Position numbers and translations under genes: made by a program. The notes below the pieces were generated by a model. It searched no databases. It was not told the DNA's origin and saw only the letters and a list, made by a program, of their open reading frames with translations. This document shows positions 2,026 to 35,230 of a stretch of DNA of 64,000 bases, in pieces. The stretch spans positions 5,312,001 to 5,376,000 of the forward strand of contig OZ245365.1 of the NCBI GenBank assembly GCA_965226495.1, given 5' to 3'. How positions within the stretch are numbered: position 1 is the stretch's first letter; every line of letters starts with the position of its first letter. The DNA comes from Candidatus Marinacidobacterales bacterium (GTDB taxonomy: Bacteria; Acidobacteriota; Vicinamibacteria; Marinacidobacterales; DATDRI01).

Positions 2026-2177
2026 TTGCTTTGTCTCGAAGATCCTATATACTAATCGGTCGGCTGTTGAGGATGGGTTACCCCTGCAGCCACCCCCAGA
2101 ACCGGGCTTACCGCTCGGTCGATGTGGCGGCCCACAGCCCGTCAATTAGCATTTTGGCATTCTACTGGAGGATCTGA

Positions 2178-2948: not shown

Positions 2949-2969
2949 TATCGGACGCGCCTTTCTAAA

Positions 2970-3008
2970 CTAGAAGAGACGCGGCGGTGCTCGCCGCGTC
3001 TCTTCTAG
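2970..3008. terminator. 17-bp perfect hairpin (terminator or mRNA-stabilising stem)
   Basis: ctagaagagacgcggcg-gtgct-cgccgcgtctcttctag between the lipoprotein gene and ctaA. Confidence 0.65.
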
Positions 3009-3029
3009 ATTCTCCTCTTCTGATTTCTA

Positions 3030-4028
3030 ATGGCCAGGTCAAAAAGCACCATACAAGCTCAACAGGCCAACCAAGCCTACCAAAAACGTTGGCTGCATCG
3101 CTTCGCGGTAGTAACCGCCGCATGCACGTGGGTGCTCATCTGGGCAGGCGGATTGGTAACTAGCACCGGCTCGGGGCTTGCCGTCCCTGACTGGCCGCTT
3201 TCCTACGGTATGCTCATGCCCCCGATGGTGGGCGGGATCCTCTACGAGCATGGCCATCGCATGGTGGCTACGTCGGTCGGCATGTTGACGACGGTTCTGG
3301 CGATCTGGCTTTGGCATTCCGAGCCACGCCAGTGGGTGCGCCGGCTAGGAGTAGCGGCATTGGCAATGGTCATCACTCAGGGAGTATTGGGCGGGATTAC
3401 GGTCATTTTTCTTCTGCCTACGCCGATCTCGGTCACGCATGCGACGTTGGCGCAGACCTTCTTCTGTGTCGTCGTCCTTCTCGCCTTCGCGACGTCTAGG
3501 GAATGGAAAACCGCGGTGAGGATGACGGATCGAGCCCATCCTTCGCTTCGAACGGTTGCGTTGATCGCAACGGGCGGTATCTATCTCCAGCTCATCCTGG
3601 GCGCGACGGTGCGGCACACCGGAGCCGCTCTTGCGATTCCGGACTTCCCACTAGCCTTTGGAGGCTTGGTTCCACCGCTCGAGACCGCACCGGTGGCCAT
3701 TCATTTTGCTCACCGGATGTTTGCTCTGGTCGTCCTGGGAGCCTTGGGATGGCTCGTGAGTCGTATCTGGCGTGAGCATTCGGGCGACACCCGGTTCACT
3801 CGACCGGCGATCGTGCTCTCTTGCCTCGTCGTCGTGCAGGTGCTCCTCGGGGGGACGATCGTCTGGACCTCTCGAGCGGTCTTCCCGGCGACGGCTCACG
3901 TGGCGATGGGCGCGCTACTCTTGGCCACCTCGTGGCTCTTGACGCTCCGGGCGTTCATACATCTCACCCCGGAGGCGGCACCCTCGATGAGCTCGATGTC
4001 CGTCGCCGAGAACCGGGGTTTGTCATAG
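3030..4028 (+). CDS. ctaA: Heme A synthase (COX15/CtaA)
   Basis: GSGLAVPDWP, EHGHRMVA and HFAHRMFA motifs; 8-TM pattern; next to the cox operon. Confidence 0.9.
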   Translation: MARSKSTIQAQQANQAYQKRWLHRFAVVTAACTWVLIWAGGLVTSTGSGLAVPDWPLSYGMLMPPMVGGILYEHGHRMVATSVGMLTTVLAIWLWHSEPRQWVRRLGVAALAMVITQGVLGGITVIFLLPTPISVTHATLAQTFFCVVVLLAFATSREWKTAVRMTDRAHPSLRTVALIATGGIYLQLILGATVRHTGAALAIPDFPLAFGGLVPPLETAPVAIHFAHRMFALVVLGALGWLVSRIWREHSGDTRFTRPAIVLSCLVVVQVLLGGTIVWTSRAVFPATAHVAMGALLLATSWLLTLRAFIHLTPEAAPSMSSMSVAENRGLS

Positions 4029-4438
4029 ACGCTTCGATCCTCCCCAACGTCAATGCGGCCCTGAACGCGGCCGCCGCCTGCTTCCTAACAGCCGGTTATT
4101 TTTTCATCCGCCGAAAGCACATCCGCGCGCACCGGATGTCTATGGTCGCAGCCTTCCTTACCTCGAGCCTCTTCCTGGCTTCCTACGTCTATTACCACTA
4201 CCAAGTAGGCTCCGTTGCCTTCACCGGACAGGGTTGGGTGCGTCCGGTTTATTTTGCCCTTCTGATCTCGCACATCGTGCTGGCTGCCCTCATCCTTCCC
4301 CTGGCCCTGGTGACCCTTTACCGAGCGCTGAAAGGTAACTTCGAGCTCCATCGACGGATCGCTCGATGGACACTTCCCATTTGGCTGTACGTGTCGGTGA
4401 CCGGCGTGACGATCTATTGGATGCTTTACTGGCTCTGA
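4025..4438 (+). CDS. DUF420 (CtaM/YozB-like) oxidase assembly membrane protein; start uncertain
   Basis: LPNVNAALN, AHRMSM, FLASYVYYH, ISHIVLA and HRRIARWTLPIWLYVSVTG motifs; apparent ATA start overlapping the ctaA stop. Confidence 0.85.
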   Translation: MDASILPNVNAALNAAAACFLTAGYFFIRRKHIRAHRMSMVAAFLTSSLFLASYVYYHYQVGSVAFTGQGWVRPVYFALLISHIVLAALILPLALVTLYRALKGNFELHRRIARWTLPIWLYVSVTGVTIYWMLYWL

Positions 4439-4683
4439 GTTTCCGTTTGGGATTTTTTTCTGGAAAGCCAGATCGCTGCGGCCAGCGTTCCGAAGACGAG
4501 ATAAGGGAATGGAAGAAGGAAGAGAATGGCGTTGTTGAACCCTCCCTGCAACCGCTGGCCCTCGATGGATCCGGCAAGGGCAGTGCGGCACATGGAGCAC
4601 TGAGCAAATAGCTGTTCTGCGCCAAGGACCGCAACGACGCAAACGACCGCCAGCGCGACGGAGACTCGCTTCGGAGAAAACAT
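4426..4683 (-). CDS. Small membrane protein with AQCSMC motif
   Basis: Signal-like N-terminus, AQCSMC, C-terminal TM; last gene of the cox operon. Confidence 0.65.
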   Translation of the reverse strand: MFSPKRVSVALAVVCVVAVLGAEQLFAQCSMCRTALAGSIEGQRLQGGFNNAILFLLPFPYLVFGTLAAAIWLSRKKSQTETQSQ

Positions 4684-4688
4684 CGTGC

Positions 4689-4997
4689 CTATTTCAGCGG
4701 AAACGTGAGGTGTTGGAAGACGTTCGACCCGTCATAGGCCGGCAACACGAACATCAGCGCGCCGACGAGGAACATGCCGACGAGGACGGTCATGGCGAGA
4801 GTCGGCTTCTCCGAGCGCATGTGCATGAAATAGAAGATGATCAGGTACGCCTTGGCCGCGGCTCCAAGCAGTAGCAAAGTGGCCTTGGGCACGTAGCCCA
4901 GGTTCGCTTCGCCGATGAAGATCATTACGAAGGTGAGGACCAGCAAGACCCCCCAGATCATCCAATAGAGGCCGTAACCATGTGACTCGCTCGACAT
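4689..4997 (-). CDS. Cytochrome c oxidase subunit IV family protein
   Basis: 3 TM helices, KAYLIIFYFMHMR motif; operon position. Confidence 0.85.
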   Translation of the reverse strand: MSSESHGYGLYWMIWGVLLVLTFVMIFIGEANLGYVPKATLLLLGAAAKAYLIIFYFMHMRSEKPTLAMTVLVGMFLVGALMFVLPAYDGSNVFQHLTFPLK

Positions 4998-5016
4998 TTG
5001 TTTCTCCCCTCCCTCG

Positions 5017-5631
5017 TCAAATGAGATAGAAAAAGGCGAAGATGAAAACCCAAACCAAATCGACGAAGTGCCAATACAAACCTGCGATTTCGACTCCCTC
5101 GGCGGAGTAACGACCGAGGGCAGATCGGATAGCCACCACCAAAAGAATAGTTACCCCGGTGATGACGTGCATTCCGTGGAAGCCAGTAATGACGAAGAAG
5201 CAAGCACCGAACTGAGGGATCCCCCAGGGATTGGTGGTCAGCCGCGCTCCCTCTCCGATGATGGTGGACCATTCGTAGACTTGCATGCCCAGGAAGCTCA
5301 AGCCCCCTAGAATGGTCAGCCAAACATACATGGTCACGTGAGGCTTTCTCCCCACCTTGGCCGCACCCACCGCGGATGCCATGAAGAGACTGCTGGTGAT
5401 AAGGGTGAACGTCATCAGGGCGATGAAATTCATGTGAAATACTTCGCTCTGATCGGGCCAACTGCCGTTCGCCACCCGCATGACCCCGTATCCCACGAGG
5501 AGCCCCCCAAAGAGCAAGGCATCGGTCACGATGAAGATCCACATCATCAGCTTCTGCCAGCTGGTGTCGAATGGAGAGACGCCACCCGACCAGACCGATT
5601 CCGTGGCCTGGCTGGCTGCGCTTTGATTCAT
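5017..5631 (-). CDS. Cytochrome c oxidase subunit III (second gene)
   Basis: KLMMWIFIVTD, ITGFHGMHV and GLYWHFVDLVW motifs; ATG at 5631 with GGAGG RBS. Confidence 0.9.
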   Translation of the reverse strand: MNQSAASQATESVWSGGVSPFDTSWQKLMMWIFIVTDALLFGGLLVGYGVMRVANGSWPDQSEVFHMNFIALMTFTLITSSLFMASAVGAAKVGRKPHVTMYVWLTILGGLSFLGMQVYEWSTIIGEGARLTTNPWGIPQFGACFFVITGFHGMHVITGVTILLVVAIRSALGRYSAEGVEIAGLYWHFVDLVWVFIFAFFYLI

Positions 5632-5656
5632 CTTGCCTCCTTGACCGTTCCCGGTC

Positions 5657-6298
5657 CTAGATGACGAACAGAACCACGAAGAGATAGATCCAAACTGCAT
5701 CCACGAAATGCCAGTACGTCGCGCATAAAGCGGGTGCGCTCGACACCCCCGGCGTCAGCTTGTAACGCCAGGATTGAACCAGCACATAAAGGAGAGCCAC
5801 CATCCCTCCCACTACGTGTAGTGCATGGACCGCTGTGAACACATAAAAAAACGAGCTGTGCGGGTGACTCTGGAGAAAGACTCCCTGCTCGGCGAGTTGT
5901 TGCCACGCCAATAGCTGACCACAGATAAACAACACTCCGAGGACGAATGTCGCCGACATCCACTTTCGGAAGGCGAGCGGTTTCCAGTTCTGGAAGGAAC
6001 GACGCGACAGTTCCATCGTGACGCTGCTGGCGAGCAGCACCGCGGTGCTCATCCACAAAACCGACGGTATTTGAAGCGGAGCCCAATCCGATCCTGCACG
6101 CCGTACGAGATAGGCACTCGTGAAGGCCGCAAAGAGCATCGTGACCGAGCCCAAGAAGACCCAGAGTCCAAGACGCGCGCTGTCGAACGGATGCGAGCTT
6201 TCGCGCCCTCCGCCGCCGCCAAAATCACCAGCGTCTGCACCGAAGCCTCCGCCACCCGTATCTGCCGCCGGTTTGGTCAATACGTCGGGCATGTTCAA
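5657..6298 (-). CDS. Cytochrome c oxidase subunit III (first gene)
   Basis: GLWVFLGS, FTAVHALHV and YWHFVDAVW motifs. Confidence 0.9.
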   Translation of the reverse strand: MNMPDVLTKPAADTGGGGFGADAGDFGGGGGRESSHPFDSARLGLWVFLGSVTMLFAAFTSAYLVRRAGSDWAPLQIPSVLWMSTAVLLASSVTMELSRRSFQNWKPLAFRKWMSATFVLGVLFICGQLLAWQQLAEQGVFLQSHPHSSFFYVFTAVHALHVVGGMVALLYVLVQSWRYKLTPGVSSAPALCATYWHFVDAVWIYLFVVLFVI

Positions 6299-7221
6299 AA
6301 GCTCCGCTTGTCGAGAACCAGCAACGTCAGCAGCACGGGCATGTAGACGAGAGTAGCTGCCATCAGTTGGATAGCCAATCTACGTGAGCGCCCCGCGCCA
6401 AACCGAACACCATAAGCAAGTAGCACAACTCCCATGATGAGCGCACCGACCAAGTAGGCCGAACCGGCCACCCCGGTGACGGCGGGCAAGGCGCTGACCA
6501 CTATCAAAGCCAGACAGAAAAAGATCATTTGCGCCCGGGTACTGATGCCTCTAGCATCGACCAAAGGCAGTACCCGATATCCGACCCGCCTGTAGTCTTC
6601 CACATAGGTCGACGCGATGGCCCAGGTATGGGGGAATTGCCAAAGAAAGAGGATCCCGAAAAGGATCCACGCCTGCTGCCCGAGTCCATTCGTCACCGCA
6701 CTCCAACCCATCAACGTGGGGATGGCACCGGCGAGGGCTCCCGCAAACGTCGACCAGTGGGTCACACGCTTGAGGGGCGTATAGACGAAGACGTATACGA
6801 CCAATGCTAGCGCCGCCAGCACAGCAGTGAGGACGTTGGTGGACCACAAAAGAGTCCCCAGCCCCACAGCCGACATCAAACTGGCCGCCACCATGGCCTC
6901 CCGGACGCTCATCCGACCGGCGGGCAACGGTCGACGCGCGGTCCGTTCCATGAGTCGATCTTGATCGCGCTCGGCGACTTCGTTGTATGCATTCGCTCCG
7001 GCAATAACGAGAAGCGCACCCACCCCGAAGAGACTCAGTTTCGCGAGGTCGGGTGAGGCCCCCGAAGCAAGCCAAAATCCGACCAGGCCCGAGGAAAGCA
7101 CCAACAGGGACAGCCTCGCCTTAGATAGGACGAAATAGTCGCCGAGCTTCTGTCCTATGGCACCGAGGACGCCCGGCTGGGAAGTGCGTTCTGTCGCCTC
7201 GAGCTCGACTGCTTCTCTCAC
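6295..7221 (-). CDS. ctaB: Protoheme IX farnesyltransferase (heme O synthase)
   Basis: D-x-D-x-x-M-x-RTARRPLP, YTPLKR and LWQFPH motifs. Confidence 0.93.
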   Translation of the reverse strand: MREAVELEATERTSQPGVLGAIGQKLGDYFVLSKARLSLLVLSSGLVGFWLASGASPDLAKLSLFGVGALLVIAGANAYNEVAERDQDRLMERTARRPLPAGRMSVREAMVAASLMSAVGLGTLLWSTNVLTAVLAALALVVYVFVYTPLKRVTHWSTFAGALAGAIPTLMGWSAVTNGLGQQAWILFGILFLWQFPHTWAIASTYVEDYRRVGYRVLPLVDARGISTRAQMIFFCLALIVVSALPAVTGVAGSAYLVGALIMGVVLLAYGVRFGAGRSRRLAIQLMAATLVYMPVLLTLLVLDKRSF

Positions 7222-7224
7222 ACG

Positions 7225-8985
7225 CTAACCCTTGGTCTCGGCCTTGACCGGAGCCGCCCATTGCGTCACATGGTCGCCTGGTGCCCCGGGCACGTTGTAC
7301 TCATAGGGGCCGCGATGGACCTCGGGAAGATCGCCTTCCCAGTTCCCGTGCCCCGGTGGTACCGGCGTCGACCACTCGACGGTGTTGGATTCCCATGGAT
7401 TGGCCTCGGCCTTCTTCCCTTTGAAGATGCTCACGAAAAAGTTAGCCAGAAATATGAGCTGCGCGGTCCCGAGGATGAAGGCACTGATAGTGATAAAAGT
7501 GTTTATCGGTTGAAGTGGTTGCAGGTATTCATAAACATTTGGATCATAGATGCGCCGTATCATCCCCGAGATTCCCAGGTAATGCATGGGGAAAAACGTC
7601 CCGTAGTACGTGACGAACGTCAGCCAGAAGTGTACCTTCCCCCACTTTTCGCTCATATGCCGGCCGTACATCTTCGGGTACCAAAAATACGTCGCGGCGA
7701 GCGCTCCGAAGAGCCCGGCACCAGCCATAATGAAGTGGAAGTGGGCCACCACGAAGTAAGTATCGTGTAGCTGAATGTCGACGGCGTTCGTGCCCAGAAA
7801 GATTCCTGTGAGGCCTCCGGTTACGAAGAGTGAAACAATGGCCAGTGCGAAGAGCATCGGGGTGATGAAACGTATCCTCGCCTTCCATAACGTAGCCAGC
7901 CAATTGAAGACCTTGACCGCCGATGGGATCGCGACCGCCAGCGTGGTCGTCACGAACACACTTCCAAGGAACGGGCTCATGCCGCTCAAGAACATGTGAT
8001 GCCCCCATACCAAGAAGCTCAATGTTGCGATGGCGATCATGGCGTAGACCATCGATCGATAGCCGAAGATGGGGCGTCGTGCGCCAGCGGCCAGAATGTC
8101 CGAGGTGAATCCTAAAGCCGGGAGCATGATGATGTACACCTCGGGATGGCCTAGAAACCAGAAAAGGTGCTGCCAGAGCAACGGTGTCCCTCCCTGGTTG
8201 GGCAACAGTTGATCGGCCACGTACATGCCGGCGGGAAGGAAAAAGCTCGTGCCCGCGTGGCGATCGAAGAGAAGCAGTATCCCACCCGCCGCCAATGCGG
8301 GAAAGGATAGCAATCCCAAAACGCCTACGAGAAACTGAGCCCATGTCGTCAATGGAAGCCGCAACATCGACAGACCCTTGGTCCTCAAATTCAGGATCGT
8401 GACCACGAAGTTGAGCCCACCCATAGTGAACGCAGCGATAAAGAACACCATGCCGATGATCCAAAGGGTTTGACCGAGTTGAGAGCCAGGTATGGCTGTC
8501 TGCACAGCGCTCAGGGGCGGGTAGGCTGTCCACCCGGAGGCCGCCGCGCCGCCGGTCACAAAGAAGGAAATAATGATGATGATGGCCCCTGGCACCACGG
8601 TCCAGAACGAAAGCATATTCAGAAAGGGGAAGGCCATGTCACGGGCGCCGATCTGGAGTGGGATGAGAAGGTTGCCGAATCCACTCACTGGAGCCAGCGA
8701 CAGGACGAAAAAGACCATGATGGTGCCGTGCATCGTGAAGAGCGAGACATAGAACTCGGGAGTCATCACACCACTCGCCATCCCGACGGGCATGAGCGAC
8801 CCGAGGATCGGCCATTGCGTTCCCGGCCAACCGAGCTGGAGTCGGATGAGCATGGCGAGTAAGCCCCCGATCACCGCCATCGACATGGCGAGGATCAAGT
8901 ACTGCTTGCCGATCATCTTGTGATCGAAGCTGAAGATGTACCTACTTATGAAGCTCTGGGGCTCATGGTCATGAGCGTCGCTCAT
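7225..8985 (-). CDS. ctaD: Cytochrome c oxidase subunit I, A1 type
   Basis: DHKMIG, TMHGTIM, GWTAYPPL, WFLGHPEVY, VWGHHM and VVAHFH motifs. Confidence 0.97.
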   Translation of the reverse strand: MSDAHDHEPQSFISRYIFSFDHKMIGKQYLILAMSMAVIGGLLAMLIRLQLGWPGTQWPILGSLMPVGMASGVMTPEFYVSLFTMHGTIMVFFVLSLAPVSGFGNLLIPLQIGARDMAFPFLNMLSFWTVVPGAIIIIISFFVTGGAAASGWTAYPPLSAVQTAIPGSQLGQTLWIIGMVFFIAAFTMGGLNFVVTILNLRTKGLSMLRLPLTTWAQFLVGVLGLLSFPALAAGGILLLFDRHAGTSFFLPAGMYVADQLLPNQGGTPLLWQHLFWFLGHPEVYIIMLPALGFTSDILAAGARRPIFGYRSMVYAMIAIATLSFLVWGHHMFLSGMSPFLGSVFVTTTLAVAIPSAVKVFNWLATLWKARIRFITPMLFALAIVSLFVTGGLTGIFLGTNAVDIQLHDTYFVVAHFHFIMAGAGLFGALAATYFWYPKMYGRHMSEKWGKVHFWLTFVTYYGTFFPMHYLGISGMIRRIYDPNVYEYLQPLQPINTFITISAFILGTAQLIFLANFFVSIFKGKKAEANPWESNTVEWSTPVPPGHGNWEGDLPEVHRGPYEYNVPGAPGDHVTQWAAPVKAETKG

Positions 8986-9141
8986 GTTGGGTCTCCTTTA
9001 TTAATGCTCGCTCACTCACTCACTCTTCGCTCGGGCCTAAAACCACGACCGGGTTCCCTTGCCGCGCATTCCGTTCGCAATTCCTCCCGCCCGGCGACCC
9101 TATCGGGTCGCATAACTGGCTCGCATATTCTTTCATCCATC

Positions 9142-9237
9142 AATTGCCTGGGGCCCCACCCCCAGGCCAGTCGCTCCGGCGACTCCGCGCCTGCACGACA
9201 GCTGAAGGCTCTCCGGCCGGCCGGCGCTAACGTGCCG
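9142..9237. repeat. Intergenic GC-rich palindromic repeat, copy 1
   Basis: gcctggggccccacccccaggc...gacagctgaaggctctccggccgg; near-identical to 18651-18746. Confidence 0.8.
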
Positions 9238-9263
9238 GTTGTTAGTCTCGCTCGCTCCTGACA

Positions 9264-10079
9264 TCAAGTACAAGGCCCTATCTCAGGCTGCGCGGTCAGC
9301 CATTCCTCGTAGTCGCCTTGCTCCATCACCGTCAGGAACCCGCGCATACGGTAGTGGCCCAGGCCGCAAAGTTCGGCACAGGCGATCTCGTAGTCACCCA
9401 CCTTGGTGGGGACGAACCAAGTGATGATGCTCATCCCCGGCTGCAGGTCTTGCTTGACTCGGTGTTGGGGCAAAAAGAAGCTGTGCTGCATGTCCTTGGA
9501 TCGCAGGCGTATCGCGGCTGGCCGATCGACGGGAAGCGCAAGTTGGTTCGTTAAACAGAAGTCGTCGGCGGAAGCGGGGTCGTCGGGGTCGACGCCGAGG
9601 AGATTCTCGATCGAAATCAGCTCATGATTAACCCGTCCGAAAACGCCGTCGGGCCCTGGGTAGCGCATATCCCATTGAAACTGAGCGCCCACAACTTCGA
9701 CCTGGATCGCATCTTCGGGGGGTGGGGAATAGACTCTGTTCCACAACCGGAGCCCCACCAAAGCGATCGGGATGAGGATGACGGCGGTTCCGATGGTCCA
9801 ACCGATCTCCATCTTGTGGCTTTCTTGCCAATCGCTTCCCTCCGCGCCGGGTCGATCGGAGTATTTCCAAATGTAGTATCCGAGTAAGCTCTGGACGACA
9901 ATGTACGCCACTCCCGTAATGCCGAGAATCACGTAGTAAAGGTTGTCCAGCCCCACTCGGTCGGAGGCCAGCTCGGGCATGCCCCACTTGAAGAAGAATG
10001 CCACCGACACGCCGACGATGAGCCAGATGACACTCGCCATCACCAGCCCTACGGTTGATTGATTGGAATTAGATGCCAT
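9264..10079 (-). CDS. ctaC: Cytochrome c oxidase subunit II (CuA, no fused cytochrome c)
   Basis: EIGWT, QFQW, HSFF and CAELCGLGHYRM motifs; no CxxCH. Confidence 0.95.
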   Translation of the reverse strand: MASNSNQSTVGLVMASVIWLIVGVSVAFFFKWGMPELASDRVGLDNLYYVILGITGVAYIVVQSLLGYYIWKYSDRPGAEGSDWQESHKMEIGWTIGTAVILIPIALVGLRLWNRVYSPPPEDAIQVEVVGAQFQWDMRYPGPDGVFGRVNHELISIENLLGVDPDDPASADDFCLTNQLALPVDRPAAIRLRSKDMQHSFFLPQHRVKQDLQPGMSIITWFVPTKVGDYEIACAELCGLGHYRMRGFLTVMEQGDYEEWLTAQPEIGPCT

Positions 10080-10128
10080 GCGATGACCTCGTCTGTTAGG
10101 ACACCAAAGTTAGCGGCGTTCGGCGCTT

Positions 10129-12927
10129 CTACCGGCCATACCGCGACAGGTAGATGGCAACCGCTTCCATCTGCTTCATTGCGTCGCCGTCCAGATACTC
10201 AGGTACCGGAGTGATAATGTTGCCTTCGTCATCCACGGGCCAGAACTGCGGCATTTGCGTTCCGGGCGCTATCGACTGCGGATCGGAAAGCCATCTGACG
10301 ACCCACTCCGGCCTCAGCCTCTCCGGTCCCAATCGGAAGCTGGGTGCCAACTGAGACGCGGACATCGTCCCTGCAGCCGAGGGAACATGACATTGCTCGC
10401 AGCGGAGGCGAGCCAGTAGATCTCGGCCAGCCGAGAACATAGCCGGGTCGACCGGCTGATCGGTGGTCTCGTAGGGCTGCGCGTCGTCCATCGCCAAGAA
10501 ACCACGCACCAGCGTATTCGCCTGCTCATCGGTGAACCCGAACGTCGGCATGCGGACGTTGAGCCAGAACCGTACCGTGGAAGGCTCCTTCAGAAAATGG
10601 AACAGCCAGTTCCCCTGCGTTTTGAGCCCCTGCGTGTTTAGGTTCGGAGGGCGCATTCCGGAGTCCTCGATGGTGTCGTAGATCGCACCCCCCTCGCCGT
10701 CGATGAGGTGGCACCCCGTGCAGTTATATTCATGAATAGTGCGTCGACCTAGCTCCGCGACCGCTTCGTTCGCATCGAGTCTCTTCATTGCTTCGAGCGG
10801 AAACTCGTCGCGCACCTGCGCGAGCACGTTCATCGCGATGTCTCTCACCTGCTCGTCGCTAAAACCGAAGTCACCCATGCGCAGTTTTTCTTGTGGAGCC
10901 TTGACCCTTCCTTGATCATAGCTGCGCGGGGCTTTCAGTTTTTGCTCCAGCCACGCACGTCGGGTATGGTCGATGTCGATGTATCCAAAGTCTAGCCGGG
11001 TCACCATCTTGGAGCCCCAGTCGGACAAATCGACGCCTAACTTCTGGGCGTTCTCGAACCCGCTGATGTCGTGGCATCCGAAGCAGCCGTAACGACGAAT
11101 GAGGCTTTCGCCCGAAAAAATGAGCTTGTCTTCCTTGGACATGCCGTCCAGTCGCTCCTGGGCCACCCGGTCCGGAAGTTTGGTACGCAAAAACTCCAGA
11201 GTAACCTCGTCGAGAGCGGTCGCTTCCGGAGCCGGAACGGGCAATTGCTCGAAGTCGAGATTCTTGAGAGATAGCAAGTATGCGGTAATGTCTCCGGCTT
11301 CCTCATCCGTCAGTCGGAGATTGGGCATAAAGGTATCCGGCCAGTAATGTTTAGGGTTCTTGAGCCAATTGAACAAGAACTTCTCATTGACCTTGCTTCC
11401 CAGCCCGGCCAGGCTCGGCCCGTGACGACGCAGCAGTGAAACACTTGCCGCGTCTGACTCATCCGTGATGTGACAACCAAGACAACCGACGGACTCGACG
11501 AGTTGTTTTCCGCGATCCGCGCTTCCCCTGGGTACGGATTGCGGGTAGTCGATCGGCTCCGCCTTGTCGAAGACGTAGGCAACGATAGCGGCCACTTCGG
11601 TGTTATTGCGCGCGCCAACATCGGCGTCCAGATTGTTGTCGAGATTCCAAAAACGAGGCATGAACGTCGACGACTTGAAGCTTTTAGGGTTCTTGACCCA
11701 ACGAGCCGCCCACTCGGGTGTCGTCTTGGAAACCACATGCGCGAGGTTAGGACCTACCTTCCGGCGATCCTCGAACCCACGGGTGTTGTGACAACCCCAG
11801 CAGCCCGCCTTCTCGTAGAGATCGCGACCTTGATTGAACGCGTCGGCCTTGGGAACGTGGGCGGTATTCGAATGGCACTTGAGGCAACCCGACTCGGAAA
11901 AATCTGCCGGATACATCGGCTTGTCCCAGTGATGGTCCGCCTCCCAGCCGTACTTTTCCTCCCACTCGACCTTCTGAACATCGTCGCGCGGCGTATGGGT
12001 TACCCTGCCAAACGTCGTCGCGCGCCCACGACCGTTGTGGCACCCCGTACAACCGAAATCATCGAGCGAGTGAGGCGATTCCCGGTTCACATAAAGATCC
12101 AGTTTGGGATGAGTGCGGTAGGGTTGTGGGGCGTCCGCATAGTCCGGATTATCGATCCCCAGGTGGCAGGTCATGCACCGATCCACCCTCGGCACTTGGA
12201 TAAAGTTCAGATCTTCGGTTACGTTCTTGACCAAGACCTGCTTGATCTCGATCGAGGGGTCGATGAAGTCGACGAGGGGAAGGTTCCGGAAGACGTTGGG
12301 GAAGCTGACTCGGATGGTATCCATCTTCCGATTGAGGAGATCGATACGCTCGGTGAGCGATTTGCGCTCCCCTTCTATACGAGTCCGTTCGGCTCGAATT
12401 TCCCGAAGCTCTTTCTCTGCGAGCTCGAGCTCGTAGTCCAAGGCGATCCGCACTTTGCGGGCGTCCAAAAAATTCCCTTCCAGCTCGTCGAACTCTTCCT
12501 GCCCCACACCCTTTCCTGGCGGGGCGTGCTCGCCCTCCTCGTAGTAAAACTTCTTGGAGTCGTAGACGGACTTGAGCTCTCGTTCCTTGACATCGACTAG
12601 GTACCTCTCGTCCGCCATCTCTTTGCGTTTTGCCTCGAGCTCGTCGATACCCTGTTTGTTCTGAAAAAGCGCATCGTTGGCAGCCTGTAGCTCTTGCTCG
12701 AGCTCTTGCTGCTTGTCCTCATCTAAAGCGGCCTGCGCTTCGTCGAACTGAGTACGGGTCGTCTCGCGCTCCAGCTTCGAAAACGTGCGTTGGTAGCCCT
12801 TCCACTCCCGCGAATAATCGTGCCAGATCATCCACACCGTAGTGATGAAGAGCGCAATACTGGTGATGGCGAAGACGACGTTCAGTCCACTGATATCGTG
12901 CGCGTGTCCGGGAGCTTCTTTACCCAC
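10129..12927 (-). CDS. Membrane-anchored multiheme cytochrome c (8 CxxCH) of the Rieske/cytochrome b complex
   Basis: N-terminal TM, coiled coil, then CMTCH, CTGCH, CLKCH, CWGCH, CLGCH, CFGCH, CTGCH, CEQCH. Confidence 0.9.
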   Translation of the reverse strand: MGKEAPGHAHDISGLNVVFAITSIALFITTVWMIWHDYSREWKGYQRTFSKLERETTRTQFDEAQAALDEDKQQELEQELQAANDALFQNKQGIDELEAKRKEMADERYLVDVKERELKSVYDSKKFYYEEGEHAPPGKGVGQEEFDELEGNFLDARKVRIALDYELELAEKELREIRAERTRIEGERKSLTERIDLLNRKMDTIRVSFPNVFRNLPLVDFIDPSIEIKQVLVKNVTEDLNFIQVPRVDRCMTCHLGIDNPDYADAPQPYRTHPKLDLYVNRESPHSLDDFGCTGCHNGRGRATTFGRVTHTPRDDVQKVEWEEKYGWEADHHWDKPMYPADFSESGCLKCHSNTAHVPKADAFNQGRDLYEKAGCWGCHNTRGFEDRRKVGPNLAHVVSKTTPEWAARWVKNPKSFKSSTFMPRFWNLDNNLDADVGARNNTEVAAIVAYVFDKAEPIDYPQSVPRGSADRGKQLVESVGCLGCHITDESDAASVSLLRRHGPSLAGLGSKVNEKFLFNWLKNPKHYWPDTFMPNLRLTDEEAGDITAYLLSLKNLDFEQLPVPAPEATALDEVTLEFLRTKLPDRVAQERLDGMSKEDKLIFSGESLIRRYGCFGCHDISGFENAQKLGVDLSDWGSKMVTRLDFGYIDIDHTRRAWLEQKLKAPRSYDQGRVKAPQEKLRMGDFGFSDEQVRDIAMNVLAQVRDEFPLEAMKRLDANEAVAELGRRTIHEYNCTGCHLIDGEGGAIYDTIEDSGMRPPNLNTQGLKTQGNWLFHFLKEPSTVRFWLNVRMPTFGFTDEQANTLVRGFLAMDDAQPYETTDQPVDPAMFSAGRDLLARLRCEQCHVPSAAGTMSASQLAPSFRLGPERLRPEWVVRWLSDPQSIAPGTQMPQFWPVDDEGNIITPVPEYLDGDAMKQMEAVAIYLSRYGR

Positions 12928-29134: not shown

Positions 29135-29482
29135 GGGGGCGCAATGGGTTCGACGGGGATAATTGATCCCGCTGCAGCATGCCGAGAGCCATCTACTCGT
29201 AAAAAAGGTGGGACAAAAACACAACTGCTGACCACAAGTTAGCATTAGCCGCTTAAGGCTACGTCCTCCCAGGCCTCGCCTGCGTGGTTTGGAAAGGGCG
29301 TCATTAGAGCAGGCTGGCCGCATTGCCACTCCCCGGGCAATCGGCGAGATTTAGGGGATAGCTTTCGTCGGGTCCTTGCCGGTTCCTAACCGGAGAAAGC
29401 GAAAAAATCGGAATCGGACAAGCATGTAGAAGCATCGGGTGAAGGTCTTCGGACGCGGGTTCGATTCCCGCCGCCTCCACCA
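29135..29482 (+). ncRNA. ssrA: tmRNA, tag (A)ADHKLALAA*
   Basis: 5' GGGGGCG pairs with 3' CGCCTCC-ACCA with G3-U wobble; T-arm GGTTCGATTCC; tag ORF 29227-29256. Confidence 0.96.
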
Positions 29483-29650
29483 ATGCAAAGAATTCGAACC
29501 GTCCTCCGGAGCGTCGCGAACTATCGAGTTATCGAGAAGCGCGGTCGTGTCGATGGAGCTCTTCGCCACATAGTAGGCCTTCCCGATATCCGGCCGCGTC
29601 CGGCTCCAATCGAATGGGACCGAGAAGACGGCGCAAGATCAAACCAAGAC
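29471..29650 (-). pseudogene. C-terminal relic of a putative large serine integrase reading through attL
   Basis: LILRRLLGPIRLEP/(+1 frameshift)/TRPDIGKAYYVAKSSIDT...GSNSLHWWRR runs into the att core; catalytic domain absent, so family assignment is by position and recollection. Confidence 0.55.
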
Positions 29651-29774
29651 TTCCAGGAAAGAGAACCAGACAAAGTCCTTAAGTGGTGTGGTGAATCTCT
29701 TGAGCAAGACTAACCTCCGGCAAACGAAGGCGACCGGCCGGATGGCGGAGCCCAGCCAGTGCCAGGCCTTCACA

Positions 29775-29960
29775 TCACAGAGGCCAGCCTCTGAGGTACT
29801 TCACCACCTGGGCTAGCTTGTCGTTCAGTTCCTTCGGGACCTCTAGATTTCCCTTGCCGCTTTCAGCAAGTGCCGCAGAGTCGCCGACGTACTTTTCCAA
29901 CACATCCAGGTGGCCGTCTCTCGAGTCAAGGGTCCCGAGAATCTCTTCTTCTTCCGTCAT
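29775..29960 (-). CDS. Small hypothetical protein
   Basis: ATG with AAGGAGGG RBS; no recognisable motif. Confidence 0.35.
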   Translation of the reverse strand: MTEEEEILGTLDSRDGHLDVLEKYVGDSAALAESGKGNLEVPKELNDKLAQVVKYLRGWPL

Positions 29961-30035
29961 TGGTCCCTCCTTGCAGCCTGACCCCATCTGGAAGCGGGGA
30001 GGGAGAGAGAGCTCATCTTCGTCAACTACCGCGGC

Positions 30036-30190
30036 ACATTTATATTGGCAACTGCCCTTACGATGTCACCGAGGAGCAACTCCGTGAGCTCTTCGCCGCG
30101 TATGGCGAGGTGGATAGCGTTAAGCTCATCACGGACCGCGATACCGCCCGCCCCCGCGGCTTCGCTTTCGTCGAGATGCCCGACGCGTCA
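30036..30190 (+). pseudogene. RRM RNA-binding protein fragment
   Basis: RNP2 IYIGN and RNP1 RGFAFVEM; no start codon, truncated C-terminus. Confidence 0.75.
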
Positions 30191-30433
30191 GAGGACTTTG
30201 GCGAAACTCCACGATCCAGTACGGCTAAGGCGATTGGTTTCAAGGCCTCAAGTGAAGATCGGATTCGGTATGGTACGTGGGACGTGCACAAGTCAAGCGG
30301 AGAGTTGATGTAGGGCTCTTGCGCGGGAGTGCGCCGTTTTTGCTGGAAGATGACACGGGCGAGAGGCCCGGGCCTATCCTCACTACCTTGTAGTTCCCGG
30401 TAACCAACCGGCCCCCAGGTTGGCCGCAGGAGT

Positions 30434-30999
30434 CTACTCCAGCCGGACGAGCGTGTAGCGGGTTTCGTTCTCCGGCGCCCACGGTAGAGTGAGAGTTAGC
30501 CGGAGGGTGTCGCCCTCGATCTCATACGTGTACGTCACGGAGCCGCCCGACATGAAGTTGGGGTTCTTGGCGACGTTGGGTCGAGTCGTGAGCGTCGATC
30601 CCGACACTTCGTACGTACCTGAGTTCGCAATGAACGAGTCATAAGCCGCTAGCTTCTCGGCATCTGTCGGCTCAGATGAGCCTACTACGGCTCATCCCCG
30701 GAGAAAAGCTCGCGGGGCTGGCTGCTGCCGTCTGGCGCGGACGGGACGTACATGATGCTGTAGTCTTGCTTCGCGAAAATGTAGAGACTCGGCTGTGGAT
30801 TTGCGTCGGTCCAACTGGTGTCGGGCGATTCGAACGAGACCTCAATGACTTTCCACGCACCCTCCAGGGCCCCCTGCATAGGCGCCTCTGTCTCCTCCGT
30901 GGTGGCCGCCTCTTCGCTGGGAAGCTCCTCTCCGGCTGGCGCGCAAGCGGTGAGGGGAACCACGAGGGCAGCAAGAATAAGAGCCGGGATTCGACTCAA
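30434..30999 (-). pseudogene. Lipocalin-like lipoprotein disrupted by a 20-nt insertion
   Basis: GGAGG-TTG start, lipobox LTAC, LEGAWK, then FIANSGTYEVSG...YTLVRLE in another frame; removing 20 nt restores a 182-codon ORF. Confidence 0.75.
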
Positions 31000-31259
31000 C
31001 AGATCTCCACCTCCATTTCCTCCGCCTACTTCACACTTGGGCTTCCAGTGTCGCGTTTCACAAAGCTCTAGCCATGGAAGCAGCTCGAATGGATGAACGG
31101 CTCGCACACGGGTACCGCTTTGGGGGCAGCCGCGAGAGAAAGAGAACCGCGAAAGAGCCACGGCGGCTGAGAGCGGTTCGGCGCGACAACATCCGGCAGA
31201 AACAAACCAGCGGCTGCTCGTGATTACCGTCAAACTGCACCGGTTGCGATATCTCCTCC

Positions 31260-32630
31260 CTACCGTGTGCCCCAGCTCTTCTTCCGAAGCGTGACGACCG
31301 CCCAAGGTAGCATGACCAACGAGGCAACGATCCACATTGGGAGCATCGGCATCAAGGAAAAGAACCCCACCTTCCTTGCCGGAGGTAGCTGGAACGCCCA
31401 GTAGAAGGTCTGGTGCAGCAGGACAACAAGGGACAGACCGATCAGGTAACCGATCGGATTGATTGCCCCGGAAAGTGGCCCCACAAGAAGGAAATAGGTC
31501 ACAATGACCGGAGACATTAACGTTACAAGGAGAACAGCATAGAATGCCACCGCTGCGCCCCAGGGTCTTCTCCACATGTGTTTGGCGCCGATAATTGATT
31601 CCAGAACGAACGATCGCCGCCATCGTGTCTGTTGTTTGACGTACTTGGACAAATTTTCAGGTACAATCGTCTCTGCTCTGGCAATGGGCACGTACGTTGT
31701 CTCAAACCCATCACGCAGAATGAGATTTGTCAGACCTCGATCGTCGCCATAGGTCCGCTTAAGCCCCAAGAATCTCTGATTGAGCCATTCATCCATCAGT
31801 TTTCTTAGGATGTCTGTCCGGTATACGCTAAAGGCTCCCGAGCAGCAGACGACGCTCCTGAAGTAACCTTCAAGGGCCCGAAATGTTCTGAAGGCAATGA
31901 AGTATTGTTGTGTCTGCATTCTGGTTAACCAATTCGCATCGGCATTACGAACATCCGTGTGACCGCACACAGCGGCAACTCGCGAAGAATAAAATCCTCT
32001 GACGATTTGACTAAGCGCATCGCGTCGCAGAAAAACATCGCTGTCGATCAATGCCGTGATTTCGGCATTGTGAAGCCTCATTCCTGCCGCTATTGCGCTC
32101 CTTTTTCCTTCGTTCTCCGGTAGGTGGACGCCCTTGTGGCCGAAGGCCTTGGTTGCCTGATCCATCCAGTAGCCGGTGTCATCACCGCTCCCGTCATTGA
32201 CGAGGATCACCGTCAGCTTCTCTTTCGGATAATCCTGAGCAGCAAGAGACCGCGCCGTTGAGTATATTCCCCTCGATTCATTCCTAGCGGGAATAATCAC
32301 GGCTACATGAGGCTGATAAGACATCAGGGGAAGAAGTTCAGGATTATACAATGCAAAGAAAACATAGCGCGCTATGATTAGAGCTCCCACCAATGCCGCA
32401 TATGCGGAGAACACAGGATGGTAGTTGAATACATTTGATACGCGAATCAGGATTATGACGGAGGCCAACCCAGCAAAAAGAATCCAGAAAGCCATTTGAG
32501 ATGGGTGTTTTATTCGGAGAAGCTTGGAAAGCCCCCCGAAACATGTTGGGGCATCTAACCAGAATGGGCTCCCCCTATTTCTGCGTACCGCCGAGGCATC
32601 GAGCTTGGAGTCGATCACGCGGTCGCTCAC
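31260..32630 (-). CDS. GT2 processive glycosyltransferase, hyaluronan synthase/NodC-like
   Basis: DGS, DSD, CCSGAFSVYR, GDDRGLTN and QQTRW motifs; TM helices; visibly lower GC. Confidence 0.88.
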   Translation of the reverse strand: MSDRVIDSKLDASAVRRNRGSPFWLDAPTCFGGLSKLLRIKHPSQMAFWILFAGLASVIILIRVSNVFNYHPVFSAYAALVGALIIARYVFFALYNPELLPLMSYQPHVAVIIPARNESRGIYSTARSLAAQDYPKEKLTVILVNDGSGDDTGYWMDQATKAFGHKGVHLPENEGKRSAIAAGMRLHNAEITALIDSDVFLRRDALSQIVRGFYSSRVAAVCGHTDVRNADANWLTRMQTQQYFIAFRTFRALEGYFRSVVCCSGAFSVYRTDILRKLMDEWLNQRFLGLKRTYGDDRGLTNLILRDGFETTYVPIARAETIVPENLSKYVKQQTRWRRSFVLESIIGAKHMWRRPWGAAVAFYAVLLVTLMSPVIVTYFLLVGPLSGAINPIGYLIGLSLVVLLHQTFYWAFQLPPARKVGFFSLMPMLPMWIVASLVMLPWAVVTLRKKSWGTR

Positions 32631-32822
32631 GACAACCTTGGTGTTCTGCTCGACAAGTTTGGAGAGCCAAAAGAAGCAGAGCGTGAATTAAACAGGGCGT
32701 TTAGCCGCGACCCAAGTCTCAGGTCACGCCTCAAGGGGAGGGTTCCAATAGCTAGGTGTGTCATGCATTCCATCCTGCGCTCTAGCAAGGTCTCGTTGTG
32801 ACGGAGCGATATCCACTCGACT

Positions 32823-33030
32823 GTGCCAGTGGGAACGGCGGCAGTGCTCTTGCTCGGCGCTCTGGCACTGTGGCCCTACGGCTATCACACTTTTCTTCGA
32901 TGGGTCGTGTGCATGACTGCGTTGATGGTGGCTTTCCGTGCGCACGACAGCGAGCGTTTTGGGACGGTTTGGACTCTTGGCCTTCTTGCTCTCCTTTTCA
33001 ACCCTCTAATTCCAATACACCTAACCCGTG
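32823..33030 (+). pseudogene. DUF6804-like membrane protein fragment
   Basis: WPYGYHTFLRWVVC and LLFNPLIPIHLTR motifs, truncated where it meets the pal 3' end. Confidence 0.6.
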
Positions 33031-33043
33031 TTCGAATCGCGGT

Positions 33044-33598
33044 TTACTTGGACGCGATCCGAAGATGGGCTCGGCGGTTCTTTTGCCAGCACGCCTCGTT
33101 ATGGTCGCTGCAGGCCGGCCGATCCTTCCCGTAGCTGATCGTGCGGAGTCGGTTGGCCGGCACACCAAGTGAGACGAGGTAGTCCATCGCGGACTTGGCT
33201 CTACGTTCCCCGAGCGCCAAGTTGTACTCCACCGTCCCGCGTTCATCGCAGTGTCCTTCGACCTCGATGACCGCGGTGTTGTAGCTCAGCTTCAACCAGT
33301 CGGCGCTTTTGGCCATGGCATCCCTCGCCTCGGGCTGCAGATCCGACCGGTCATAGTCGAAATGGGCGTCGGACAGGTTCTTTTGGAGCTCGATGGCCGT
33401 CGCCTCAACAAAGAGATCCTCCGCCGTCGGTTGCTTCCGCGGTGGTGGTGGCGGTGGTGGCGGCGGCGGTGGTGGTGGCTCCTCCTTTGGTGGAGGCGGT
33501 GGCGGCGGGGGTGGATTCTTTCCGCAACCCACAAGATCGGTCGCTAGGACGACGACAAATACGAACAGTCCTAGCGAGGCTATCCATCGTTTCTTCAC
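33044..33598 (-). CDS. pal: Pal/OmpA-family peptidoglycan-associated lipoprotein with polyproline linker
   Basis: Lipobox LVGC; FDYD, EGHCDERGTVEYNLALGERRA, ISYGK and NRRA motifs. Confidence 0.88.
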   Translation of the reverse strand: MKKRWIASLGLFVFVVVLATDLVGCGKNPPPPPPPPPKEEPPPPPPPPPPPPPRKQPTAEDLFVEATAIELQKNLSDAHFDYDRSDLQPEARDAMAKSADWLKLSYNTAVIEVEGHCDERGTVEYNLALGERRAKSAMDYLVSLGVPANRLRTISYGKDRPACSDHNEACWQKNRRAHLRIASK

Positions 33599-33775
33599 GA
33601 AGTCACCTCCTACGCGTTATGATAGGTAGAATTGAGATGGTTCCTCATGACACCACAGTCGGTTCGCGTGCTGGGGCTCTAGCCCAGGGCTGTTTTCCAT
33701 ATGGAGTCACGAAACTGGTAGAGTACCCGAAATCGGCGGTTAGTTTAAACGCCAGAGCGTGAATTTGTCAAGGTC

Positions 33776-34069
33776 ATGGCAAAAAAACAGCCAAAAGAAA
33801 TCAAGAAGAAGATACTAACCAAGGAAGTCCTTGCCTTCGTGGTGGTCGTTTTGGCGGTCACCGGGTACCTGCTTTGTCAGGGGGCCACCAAACCTTCCGC
33901 TACCGCAGAAGGGCCTACCGCCGCACCGGCGGCGCCGAATCAAACCCTCGCCGCCGGGAACGCCCTTCCGGTGGTTCGTCTCATCTCGCTCAACGGGAAT
34001 AGCCTTCTGCGCTCGAAGTGGACCGAGAAGAGCATCCGATACACGGGTGGCCAATGGGTTACGGTCTGA
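33776..34069 (+). CDS. Hypothetical membrane-anchored protein, possibly truncated
   Basis: Basic N-terminus plus TM helix; no known motif. Confidence 0.35.
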   Translation: MAKKQPKEIKKKILTKEVLAFVVVVLAVTGYLLCQGATKPSATAEGPTAAPAAPNQTLAAGNALPVVRLISLNGNSLLRSKWTEKSIRYTGGQWVTV

Positions 34070-34115
34070 CGATTGACTGAAGACAGGGATTTGCGAAACG
34101 AACCCAATTCTCTAG

Positions 34116-34325
34116 CTACGAGCTTGTGTGCTTCCGCCGCCACCTGATAGCCTTGGCAACCGTCTTGTCCGTCACGCCCAGACTTTTGGCAATGCGGGAG
34201 AAGCTAAGACCTAGCTGGCGCAGCCGCTCAGCTTGGGCGGCGACCCTCTGGTACGCTGGGGGGTCTACGGTCTCGAGAAGGAAGGCCTCGAACGGGGTCT
34301 CACCTGCGGTTCGAATTCTTTGCGA
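34116..34325 (-). other. Start-less 69-codon HTH-encoding segment adjoining attR
   Basis: SQRIRTAGETPFEAFLLETVDPPAYQRVAAQAERLRQLGLSFSRIAKSLGVTDKTVAKAIRWRRKHTSS*; upstream in-frame TGA with no start codon in between. Confidence 0.7.
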
Positions 34326-34334
34326 CCGCCTCCA

Positions 34335-34365
34335 CCAATTTTCCCGACTCCGTCGCGAAAATTGG
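34335..34365. terminator. Hairpin overlapping the attR core (possible pre-integration tmRNA 3' flank)
   Basis: ccaattttc-ccgac-tcc-gtcgc-gaaaattgg. Confidence 0.4.
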
Positions 34366-34428
34366 CCGCCGTAACTACATCAACTGTTTGAGCGAAGGCG
34401 GGCTACCCTGCGGGCCCAACATCGGAAA

Positions 34429-34725
34429 TCAACTCGCCCTTAGAACAGGCTTGGGTAGTTTCTCGACCCGCCTAGCCGCGAGGTAAAGGTCAACTGCCTT
34501 CTGAGCGTTTAGCCAAAACTCGGGCGTTGTTCTGAACGTCGCACCGAGCTTGAGAGCCATCTCCGCAGTCACGGAGGTCCGACCGTTCACAAGCCTATTA
34601 ACGACTTTGACATCGCAACCGAGATGGTCGGCCAGTCGTTTTTGTGTCATACCGAGCGGAACCAGGAATTCTTCTTTGAGAATCTCCCCGGGGCTCGTGG
34701 GTTTGCGCCTTCTTCTTTCATTCAT
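34429..34725 (-). CDS. higA: HigA antitoxin (Xre HTH)
   Basis: PTSPGEILKEEFL, TAEMALKL and TTPEFWLNAQ motifs. Confidence 0.93.
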   Translation of the reverse strand: MNERRRRKPTSPGEILKEEFLVPLGMTQKRLADHLGCDVKVVNRLVNGRTSVTAEMALKLGATFRTTPEFWLNAQKAVDLYLAARRVEKLPKPVLRAS

Positions 34726-34735
34726 GACAGTTCTC

Positions 34736-35026
34736 TTAATGGTAATCTCGAATATCGACCTCTCCGGGACCAGCGCCCGTCCAGCGGAACACGACTCGCC
34801 ACTGATCGTTGATCCTGATGCTGTGAAAGCCCTTGAGGTCTCCCCTCAAAGCCTCCAGCCGGTTTCCGGGCGGGGAGGCAAGATCACTCAGCTTCTCAGA
34901 ATAATCCAGCATATCGAGCTTCCTGATAGCCATTTTCGCGACACGGGCCCACCCTACCCGCTTGTTGATTCGACCCTCCCGGAAGAACCTTTCGACGTTC
35001 CGACTGGCGAAACTCTGTATCGCCAC
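34736..35026 (-). CDS. higB: HigB toxin (RelE/ParE family)
   Basis: PPGNRLEALRGD, HSIRINDQWRVVFRW and DYH motifs; GTG start. Confidence 0.93.
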   Translation of the reverse strand: MAIQSFASRNVERFFREGRINKRVGWARVAKMAIRKLDMLDYSEKLSDLASPPGNRLEALRGDLKGFHSIRINDQWRVVFRWTGAGPGEVDIRDYH

Positions 35027-35195: not shown

Positions 35196-35224
35196 GGTTC
35201 GAATTCTTTGCGACCGCGTCACCA
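35196..35224. mobile_element. Second, decayed attR-like site
   Basis: ggttcgaattctttgcgaccgc is identical over 22 nt to 34308-34329, followed by gtcacca instead of ctccacca. Confidence 0.7.
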
Positions 35225-35230
35225 CGACAG

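Follow-up and report, generated by a model that had tools for sequence, protein, structure and literature searches.

At the 3' end of the gene for transfer-messenger RNA (tmRNA), the DNA of a Candidatus Marinacidobacterales bacterium analysed here (64,000 nucleotides of contig OZ245365.1, hereafter the window) carries the decayed remains of a small integrative element, and this relic belongs to a family of large serine recombinases (LSRs) whose integrase gene, int, holds the attachment site of the element, attP, within its own reading frame. As read from the sequences, integration splits the LSR in two, with the catalytic domain, both DNA-binding domains (DBD1 and DBD2) and the coiled coil encoded at the left junction, attL, and one beta-strand and a three-helix helix-turn-helix (HTH) encoded at the right junction, attR. 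The explanation that we hold to be probable, without regarding it as secure, is that the integrated copy makes a truncated integrase (Int), that excision rebuilds Int together with its HTH, and that the enzyme is therefore one that is changed by recombination.

The relic at the tmRNA gene

The tmRNA gene of the window, with the tag ADHKLALAA, occupies 29135..29482 on the plus strand (ARAGORN; Rfam RF00023, 174 bits), and its final bases form the B' half of attB. Its last 12 bases and the two that follow make up a 14-nt core, CCGCCTCCACCAAT, which a repeat search locates at 29471..29484 (the attL copy) and once more at 34326..34339 (the attR copy). Just inside both core copies lie two arms of 16 nt each, absent from the initial annotation of the window, which are the reverse complements of each other: the P arm of the former attP at 29486..29501 (GCAAAGAATTCGAACC on the plus strand), whose minus strand encodes GSNSL(H), and the P' arm at 34308..34323 (GGTTCGAATTCTTTGC on the plus strand), whose minus strand encodes QRIRT. 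Since the arms stand inverted at the two ends, rejoining these ends gives a palindromic attP of the serine-integrase type.

The left-end frame of the minus strand reads ...DIGKAYYVAKSSIDTTALLDNSIVRDAPEDGSNSLHWWRR, also given as ...PDIGKAYYVAKSSIDTTALLDNSIVRDAPEDGSNSLHWWRR, and then enters the antisense tmRNA. What remains of the integrase is a C-terminal stretch of ~57 codons in two frames at 29471..29642 on the minus strand (E 7.7e-7 to residues 346-390 of P0001, a longer relative introduced below), namely an upstream frame at 29601-29642, LILRRLLGPIRLEP, and a downstream frame at 29471-29593, PDIGKAYYVAKSS...GSNSLHWWRR, with a +1 shift near 29600, where 7 nt stand at 29594-29600 against 6 in an intact relative. 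Everything upstream of these codons is gone, the catalytic domain included. Past the core, the integrase frame continues through the antisense tmRNA at 29351..29470 (minus strand) for 39 residues, RESNPRP...AIP, and then meets a stop. At the right end the frame is the same, WWRR, and runs on into a start-less piece of 69 codons that encodes the C-terminal HTH (SQRIRTAGE...LRQLGLSFSRIAKSLGVTDKTVAKAIRWRRKHTSS; 34119..34325, minus strand) and closes with a stop at 34116-34118; this piece matches HTH_23 with an E-value of 0.0011, which is under the Pfam cut-off. Fourteen codons upstream, the frame contains a TGA (34380-34382, minus strand), and there is no ATG, GTG or TTG between it and the HTH piece. 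The initial annotation had described the insertion with its core repeats, the left frame crossing into antisense residues, the start-less HTH frame downstream of a TGA and the condition of the copy as a frameshifted relic devoid of its catalytic domain, and all of this is found in the window as it was described.

The native flank of the tmRNA gene follows attR at 34340..34382, and comprises a terminator-like hairpin (TTTTCCCGAC..GTCGCGAAAA) as well as the TGA. In the empty sites of a genome of the same genus (G001) and of two genomes of the same order (G008 and G042), the hairpin comes directly 3' of the tmRNA end, whereas in the window it sits after attR and not after the tmRNA, which means that 29485-34325 (4.84 kb) was inserted between the tmRNA gene and its terminator. 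This interval is what is left of a small integrative element, and the copy is dead. The search for other copies in the source genome returned weak matches to the HTH and an LSR other than this one (32% identity), and no intact member of the family.

A split shared across phyla

Searching for longer proteins that hold the HTH piece led to P0001, of 456 aa, with Recombinase and Zn_ribbon_recom domains. In it, one single frame reads ...LLRRILGPIRLEP..DIGRHYYISKT...GGSNSLRWWTRTQRIRTAAE... and then the HTH, the junction being contiguous with the latter. With P0001 as the query, 51 genome loci were found, labelled as Acidobacteriota, Actinomycetota (many of them Solirubrobacterales), Gemmatimonadota, Myxococcota, Dormiibacterota, Verrucomicrobiia, Bacillota and others. 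In 38 of them the match to P0001 stops at residues 386-390, that is, at the WW of the ...GSNSLxWW junction. What comes after the arm GGTTCGAATTCTTTGCG is, in 33 loci, the tmRNA 3' end in antisense and, in another four (L035, L044, L046 and L055), tRNA-Ala; in four further loci the same sequence is found next to a truncated gene or where the contig stops. The frame across the core, which according to the initial annotation ought to be conserved in relatives, is conserved over many phyla.

An open frame of at least 500 aa is kept in 19 of the 51 loci. The Int of L041, with 571 aa, shows the domains Resolvase (PF00239, E 8.1e-29), Recombinase (PF07508) and Zn_ribbon_recom (PF13408), the last two being those also present in P0001; and a longer relic from the same order as the window (G034, 249 aa), beside the tmRNA gene, reads into the antisense tmRNA and is cut upstream by an insertion sequence. 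The left-end peptide of the window had been taken for a serine recombinase on its letters, and P0001, the L041 domains and the G034 relic identify it as the C-terminal region of an LSR.

Past the junction, Int carries a tail of ~19 residues, RRRESNPRP...LRA, in most of the copies integrated at tmRNA genes. Across L025-L042 the tails end in ...LRA or ...LRV and are of near-constant length, because the tmRNA itself is conserved, and in L044, at tRNA-Ala, the integrase ends one residue past the WW (WWT, stop). There are loci with other arrangements. At L029 (11135-11175) and L053 (11044-11085) the arm is followed by TTGGTGGGGTTGTTGCAA... and not by tmRNA, and the tmRNA gene lies ~5 kb (L029) or ~1 kb (L053) beyond; these arms may represent a displaced junction in a tandem array, or else another target. 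L016, which belongs to a genome of the same order (G016), has remnants of tyrosine-integrase islands and a family HTH piece stacked at the tmRNA gene over 1617-10400, and in P0004 the frame of a tyrosine integrase leads straight into the HTH piece, forming a chimeric open reading frame (ORF) at an island junction.

An attachment site within the integrase gene

In live relatives the rejoined attP measures 48 bp, with two perfect inverted arms of 17 nt around a centre of 14 nt that has GA in its middle. The whole site lies within the ORF, ~68 codons before the int stop, as had been proposed from the relic: its arms translate as GSNSLR and TQRIRT, and its centre as WW. The arm codons show no synonymous variation, with Gly always GGT (19 of 19), Ser always TCG (19 of 19) and Asn always AAT (16 of 16), so that the DNA site constrains the GSNSLR peptide as much as the protein does. 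The Gly codon that precedes the arm is GGC in 12 of 13. In its length of about 50 bp, its inverted arms and its scarce identity to attB, this attP is of the type used by LSRs.

The core that attP and attB have in common ranges from 5 to 14 nt across loci, and the crossover falls within the last ~7 nt of the tmRNA gene, 5-7 nt before its 3' end. The T-arm of the tmRNA, GGTTCGAATCC, resembles the arm motif, with CGAACC standing 5 bp nearer the centre in the tmRNA half-site than in attP. In canonical LSRs the DBD2 is shifted by 5 bp between attB and attP, and the offset between T-arm and arm motif recalls this difference of placement. That the positioning of DBD2 differs between both sites is described in PMC12286644. 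In the downstream half of attB, a comparison by eye found no conserved motif.

The C-terminal piece and its place in the protein

Within the fetched flanks, the HTH piece was located upstream of int and on the same strand in 12 of the 51 loci. Furthermore, a profile built from ten HTH pieces matched 13 of 24 further genomes, and the pieces that could be placed on the int contig were 11-40 kb away from the gene, giving an overall range of 2.7-40 kb between both parts. The elements measure 2.7 kb (L044), 2.8 kb (L026), 4.2 kb (L041), 8.7 kb (L028), about 11 kb (L047), about 20 kb (L038), about 34 kb (L050) and about 40 kb (L045), the last four sizes assuming matching contig numbers, an assumption that identical overlaps confirmed for the pairs L047/L095 and L048/L100. 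Every such attR junction consists of host flank, then (A)TGGTGGAC-CCGGA-CGCAAAGAATTCGAACC, then the HTH. After the upstream in-frame stop, 10 of 16 attR pieces have no ATG, GTG or TTG, and in 7 of those 10 (L044, L052, L062, L091, L093, L095 and L097) the stop lies 5-7 codons before a conserved Gln codon and 0-3 codons before the WTRT motif. The expectation that homologues of the relic would end at tmRNA with a distant, start-less HTH is supported by the 33 tmRNA loci and by those 10 of the 16 pieces.

The piece is conserved from Acidobacteriota to Actinomycetota. Over the 57 codons beyond the arm, the proportion of non-synonymous differences (pN) is below that of synonymous ones (pS) in 105 of the 105 pairs formed by 15 attR pieces (mean pN 0.32, mean pS 0.68), and the ratio of the corresponding substitution rates (dN/dS) is 0.12-0.6 in the 45 least saturated pairs. 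This agrees with the purifying selection on the HTH for which the initial annotation had suggested looking.

A model of P0001 by AlphaFold 2 (AF2), with a predicted local distance difference test (pLDDT) of 77, matches the solved serine integrases 9y66 (E 1.8e-8) and 4kis (5e-5). It shows the long helices 220-267 and 273-301 of the coiled coil and, further on, a linker modelled with low confidence (374-379), a pair of short helices spanning the segment that attP encodes, a beta-strand (397-404) and a confident three-helix HTH (412-455). All the other strands of the model lie upstream of the junction, and the C-terminal piece thus probably completes the sheet that the N-terminal part forms.

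Two upstream genes and a predicted directionality partner

Live relatives carry a MerR-like gene and a small gene directly upstream of int, the latter separated from it by 9-15 nt. The MerR-like product has ~190 aa and weak Pfam matches, below the cut-off, and the gene was found in 21 of the 51 loci; the small gene encodes 63-78 aa with one conserved helix, LLDHIAxELAxEYVRLME, and was found in 22, and several of the loci that lack either gene have no upstream sequence. Both genes start at a conserved TTGACA-N17-GATAGACnnnGTCTATCATG, and in the MerR-like as well as in the small gene the ATG marks the end of a palindrome, ATAGACnnnGTCTAT (8688-8702 and 9289-9303 in L041; 7780-7794 in L044). Present in 15 of 112 loci, it is likely to be the operator of putative leaderless promoters. 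The window element has lost both genes, and the palindrome is also absent from the window (2 matches at 2 mismatches, with 1.05 expected), as expected for a relic.

The prediction of a complex between the small protein and residues 315-545 of Int scored 0.75 (runs of 0.75, 0.62 and 0.75), and the best of 3 controls scored 0.09; that score was reached by 58 of the 80 solved complexes of a benchmark and by 2 of its 110 mismatched pairs. The runs share at least 74% of their contacts, with a partner pLDDT of at least 60, and the contacts predicted on Int, at 379-404 and 461-503, correspond to the junction between DBD2 and the coiled coil. This is where known recombination directionality factors (RDFs) bind, according to PMC12286644, and the small protein probably acts like an RDF at that junction. 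The initial annotation had envisaged two isoforms that set the direction or autoregulate without a separate RDF; the predicted binding makes this last element unlikely, so that of its overall interpretation the split LSR with an in-frame attP stands, and the absence of a separate RDF, given the two conserved genes upstream of int, is left unsupported.

Joined forms and signs of mobility

The intact attP, sought by exact scan, is present in 15 metagenome contigs, and in all of these the frame runs through the site; 9 of them carry the HTH, whole or decayed at its end, and the other 6 stop soon or reach the end of the contig. Together with P0001, they constitute natural fused forms, just as the relic suggested when its two ends were rejoined in frame. 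The same exact scan found no intact attP in viral contigs; the elements look like small non-phage islands. The longest fused frames, which lack the start of the catalytic domain, are those of L084 (553 aa), P0001 itself and L080 (406 aa), and one fused fragment, P0016 (288 aa), has two tandem HTH modules past the junction.

Run with HMMER against 1.84 billion representatives, the HTH profile produced 2037 matches at E <= 0.001, 697 of them at E <= 1e-10. Among the best 150 of these 697, 137 do not exceed 200 aa, four are long, unrelated repeat proteins, and there is no complete fused Int. That the HTH is met in databases almost exclusively as a short orphan ORF is what would be expected if the fused gene existed only on a transient circle. 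A word-based search with residues 392-456 of P0001 returned only P0001 and one protein of 264 aa, and is too insensitive to count fused forms. Regarding mobility, one Logan contig from a peat metagenome run (X2) has the host flank joined to the tRNA with exactly the 2763 nt of the intact L044 element absent; nine letters are shared at the joint, and other X2 contigs cover the element. Both DNA states, the split and the joined one, exist.

Relation to known systems

An attP located inside a coding frame has precedents in myxophage Mx8 (intP/intX) and in mycobacteriophage BPs, where integration changes the C-terminus of the protein; both use tyrosine integrases, and the protein that is remodelled in BPs is the repressor. 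The closest precedent among serine recombinases, as described in PMC3146451 (McMurdie et al. 2011), is the CcrB-like DsiB of Dehalococcoides, whose gene is located at ssrA and always overlaps attL. Part of the idea of two forms was already raised there in 2011, since its authors ventured that DsiB may be fully functional only on the circle or with a 3' fragment supplied by a neighbour. As in those islands, an LSR gene crosses attL into ssrA here (in 33 of the 51 loci and in the window). DsiB islands are, for their part, tandem and of variable cargo; they insert in the T-loop with a 20-bp repeat, in contrast to the position 5-7 nt from the 3' end and the core of 5-14 nt of the present family, and a module of six genes, among them one for a second small serine recombinase, DsiA, stands there in place of the MerR-like gene and the gene of 63-78 aa. 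The dsiB passages of that paper mention no conserved 3' fragment, HTH domain or palindromic attP within the ORF.

The "suicidal" integrases of the archaeal SSV type also have the att site inside the integrase gene, which is partitioned upon integration, and a review (PMC8371274) discusses the complete gene as one that acts like a directionality factor and describes the type as exclusive to archaea. They are tyrosine recombinases, and it is the enzyme itself that is broken, whereas here the enzyme is a serine recombinase split after DBD2 and the coiled coil, from which only a C-terminal strand and the HTH are removed while the catalytic and core DNA-binding parts all remain. With the canonical LSRs (SprA/SprB of SPbeta, PhiC31, Bxb1, A118) the family shares the domain order, an attP of ~50 bp with inverted arms and, as predicted here, a small partner at the junction of DBD2 and coiled coil. 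In those systems, however, attP is beside int, which the SV1 paper gives as the normal position (PMC4068962), and not inside the gene with an enzyme that differs between the two states. Regarding the target, the Islander paper, in 2014, stated that only tyrosine integrases were known to use tRNA and tmRNA genes (PMC4383910), and a 2023 paper mentions ssrA islands with large serine recombinases in clostridia (PMC10061031). The literature searched, with subscription journals and supplements outside that search, yielded no account of a serine integrase whose C-terminal HTH module is split off.

How the split might work, and competing explanations

Recombination of the in-frame attP with the 3' end of the tmRNA gene (or, for some copies, with tRNA-Ala) splits int. 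In the scheme considered probable above, only truncated Int could from then on be produced by the integrated copy, and consequently truncated Int must be the form that carries out excision, in which the small RDF-like protein probably helps it. Excision would restore the full-length Int with its HTH, and this form would integrate and/or bind the palindromic operator at the element promoters, and may counter the RDF. A self-rewriting recombinase can also be conceived, in which truncated Int is competent for excision and the extra module of the circle Int is an anti-RDF acting in cis or a repressor of the RDF-int operon. This is a tentative proposal that we rather doubt; if it were true, the state of the DNA would set the direction in spite of the co-expression of Int and the RDF-like protein.

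Several points weigh against the probable scheme. The copy in the window is itself incapable of the proposed reactions, and the circle and both isoforms are predicted from the comparison of sequences. None of the fused forms is a complete Int with its catalytic domain, all of them being N-truncated or on short contigs, and their occurrence as fragments fits a transient circle and equally fits fused forms that are dead ends. In most pairs of attR pieces dS is near saturation, and the pieces are related and not independent, reasons why purifying selection counts as support and not as proof. The contig with the empty L044 site shows 9 mismatches in 79 letters towards the tRNA, and that site may hence belong to another strain; no circle junction appeared in the contigs of four peat metagenome runs, a result that is uninformative given that contigs drop rare variants. 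As for the models, the score of the complex rests on alignments made by the authors and is a prediction rather than a measurement, and the AF2 model of the truncated L041 Int is unreadable (pLDDT 55.7, with the tail below 50) and uninformative about the tail encoded by tmRNA.

Is truncated Int active at all? The main rival holds that it is not: integration would be semi-suicidal, with only full-length Int active and integrated elements locked in, to be released by a complete int supplied in trans, either by a tandem neighbour (with its HTH piece downstream) or by an incoming copy. The same logic is followed by the archaeal SSV-type integrases in the review cited (PMC8371274), and supply by a tandem neighbour was an idea that McMurdie et al. 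put forward for dsiB (PMC3146451). Chromosomes do contain junctions that are tandem or fused (L029, L096, L098, P0004), 32 of the 51 loci have no frame of at least 500 aa, many copies having decayed, and the truncation may damage the fold, because in the model the beta-strand 397-404 comes from the C-terminal piece and the other strands from upstream. Nevertheless, the split spares the catalytic domain, both DNA-binding domains and the coiled coil, unlike in archaea; 19 long open frames are kept in a family that extends over many phyla; the HTH pieces are under selection, which needs a regular return to the circle; and a conserved RDF-like partner is present. Taken with these points, the locked-in design is judged unlikely, if somewhat less so than the remaining options.

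The overlap might also be neutral, in a sense that attP would merely coincide with the 3' end of int, the isoforms would be equal, and the HTH would have a slight role or one unrelated to direction, such as extra DNA affinity. McMurdie et al. offer a "trivial explanation" of this kind for dsiB (PMC3146451), and in the AF2 model the attP-encoded segment comes after the low-confidence linker 374-379. Purifying selection on the 57 codons beyond the arm, in all 105 pairs, and the retention of the HTH piece from Acidobacteriota to Actinomycetota speak against it and leave it improbable. A still poorer fit, and one to which hardly any credence is given, is that the HTH piece constitutes a small regulator gene in its own right, belonging to the element or to the host, with its own start when integrated. 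Gene callers do list hundreds of short ORFs with the piece (the 137 among the best 150 that do not exceed 200 aa), and some of them begin one to three codons before the W (P0105, P0083). Against this stand the 10 of 16 attR pieces devoid of a canonical start, the stop 0-3 codons before WTRT in 7 of them, the varying places in unrelated host flank at which existing starts lie, and the natural forms fused in frame.

Cargo and neighbourhood of the window element

The interior of the insertion (29643..34118), with no integrase module left, encodes an RNA recognition motif (RRM) protein at 30020-30310 on the plus strand and, on the minus strand, a GT2 glycosyltransferase at 31263-32630, with a GC content of ~0.51 against ~0.59 around it, and an OmpA-family lipoprotein at 33047-33598, in addition to small ORFs. 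In the same-genus genome G001, the GT2 and OmpA genes are found on a contig other than that of the tmRNA, with identities of 95% and 87%. Outside the element, attR is separated by a HigA/HigB toxin-antitoxin pair (34432-34725 and 34739-35026, minus strand) from a third, degenerate copy of the P' arm at 35196..35225, the minus strand of which reads VVTRSQRIRT with no HTH after it. This third arm looks like the right end, an attR relic, of another, older element. The native tmRNA terminator is placed to the left of it, which sits awkwardly with such a reading.

Significance

Large serine integrases are valued as tools for one-way DNA insertion, and how they choose their direction is an active question. 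The family described here is a natural case in which the integrated and the excised DNA encode different enzymes, the difference being 68 residues, and its targets, the 3' end of the tmRNA gene and also tRNA-Ala, include one of the most conserved sites in bacteria. In terms of annotation, hundreds of orphan short HTH "genes" in databases are explained as the C-termini of integrases left at attR, and an int frame that enters tmRNA, together with a start-less HTH piece, marks both ends of an island. For the family itself, the integrase gene has its attachment site within itself, in such a way that insertion removes a DNA-binding tail from the enzyme and excision would restore it.

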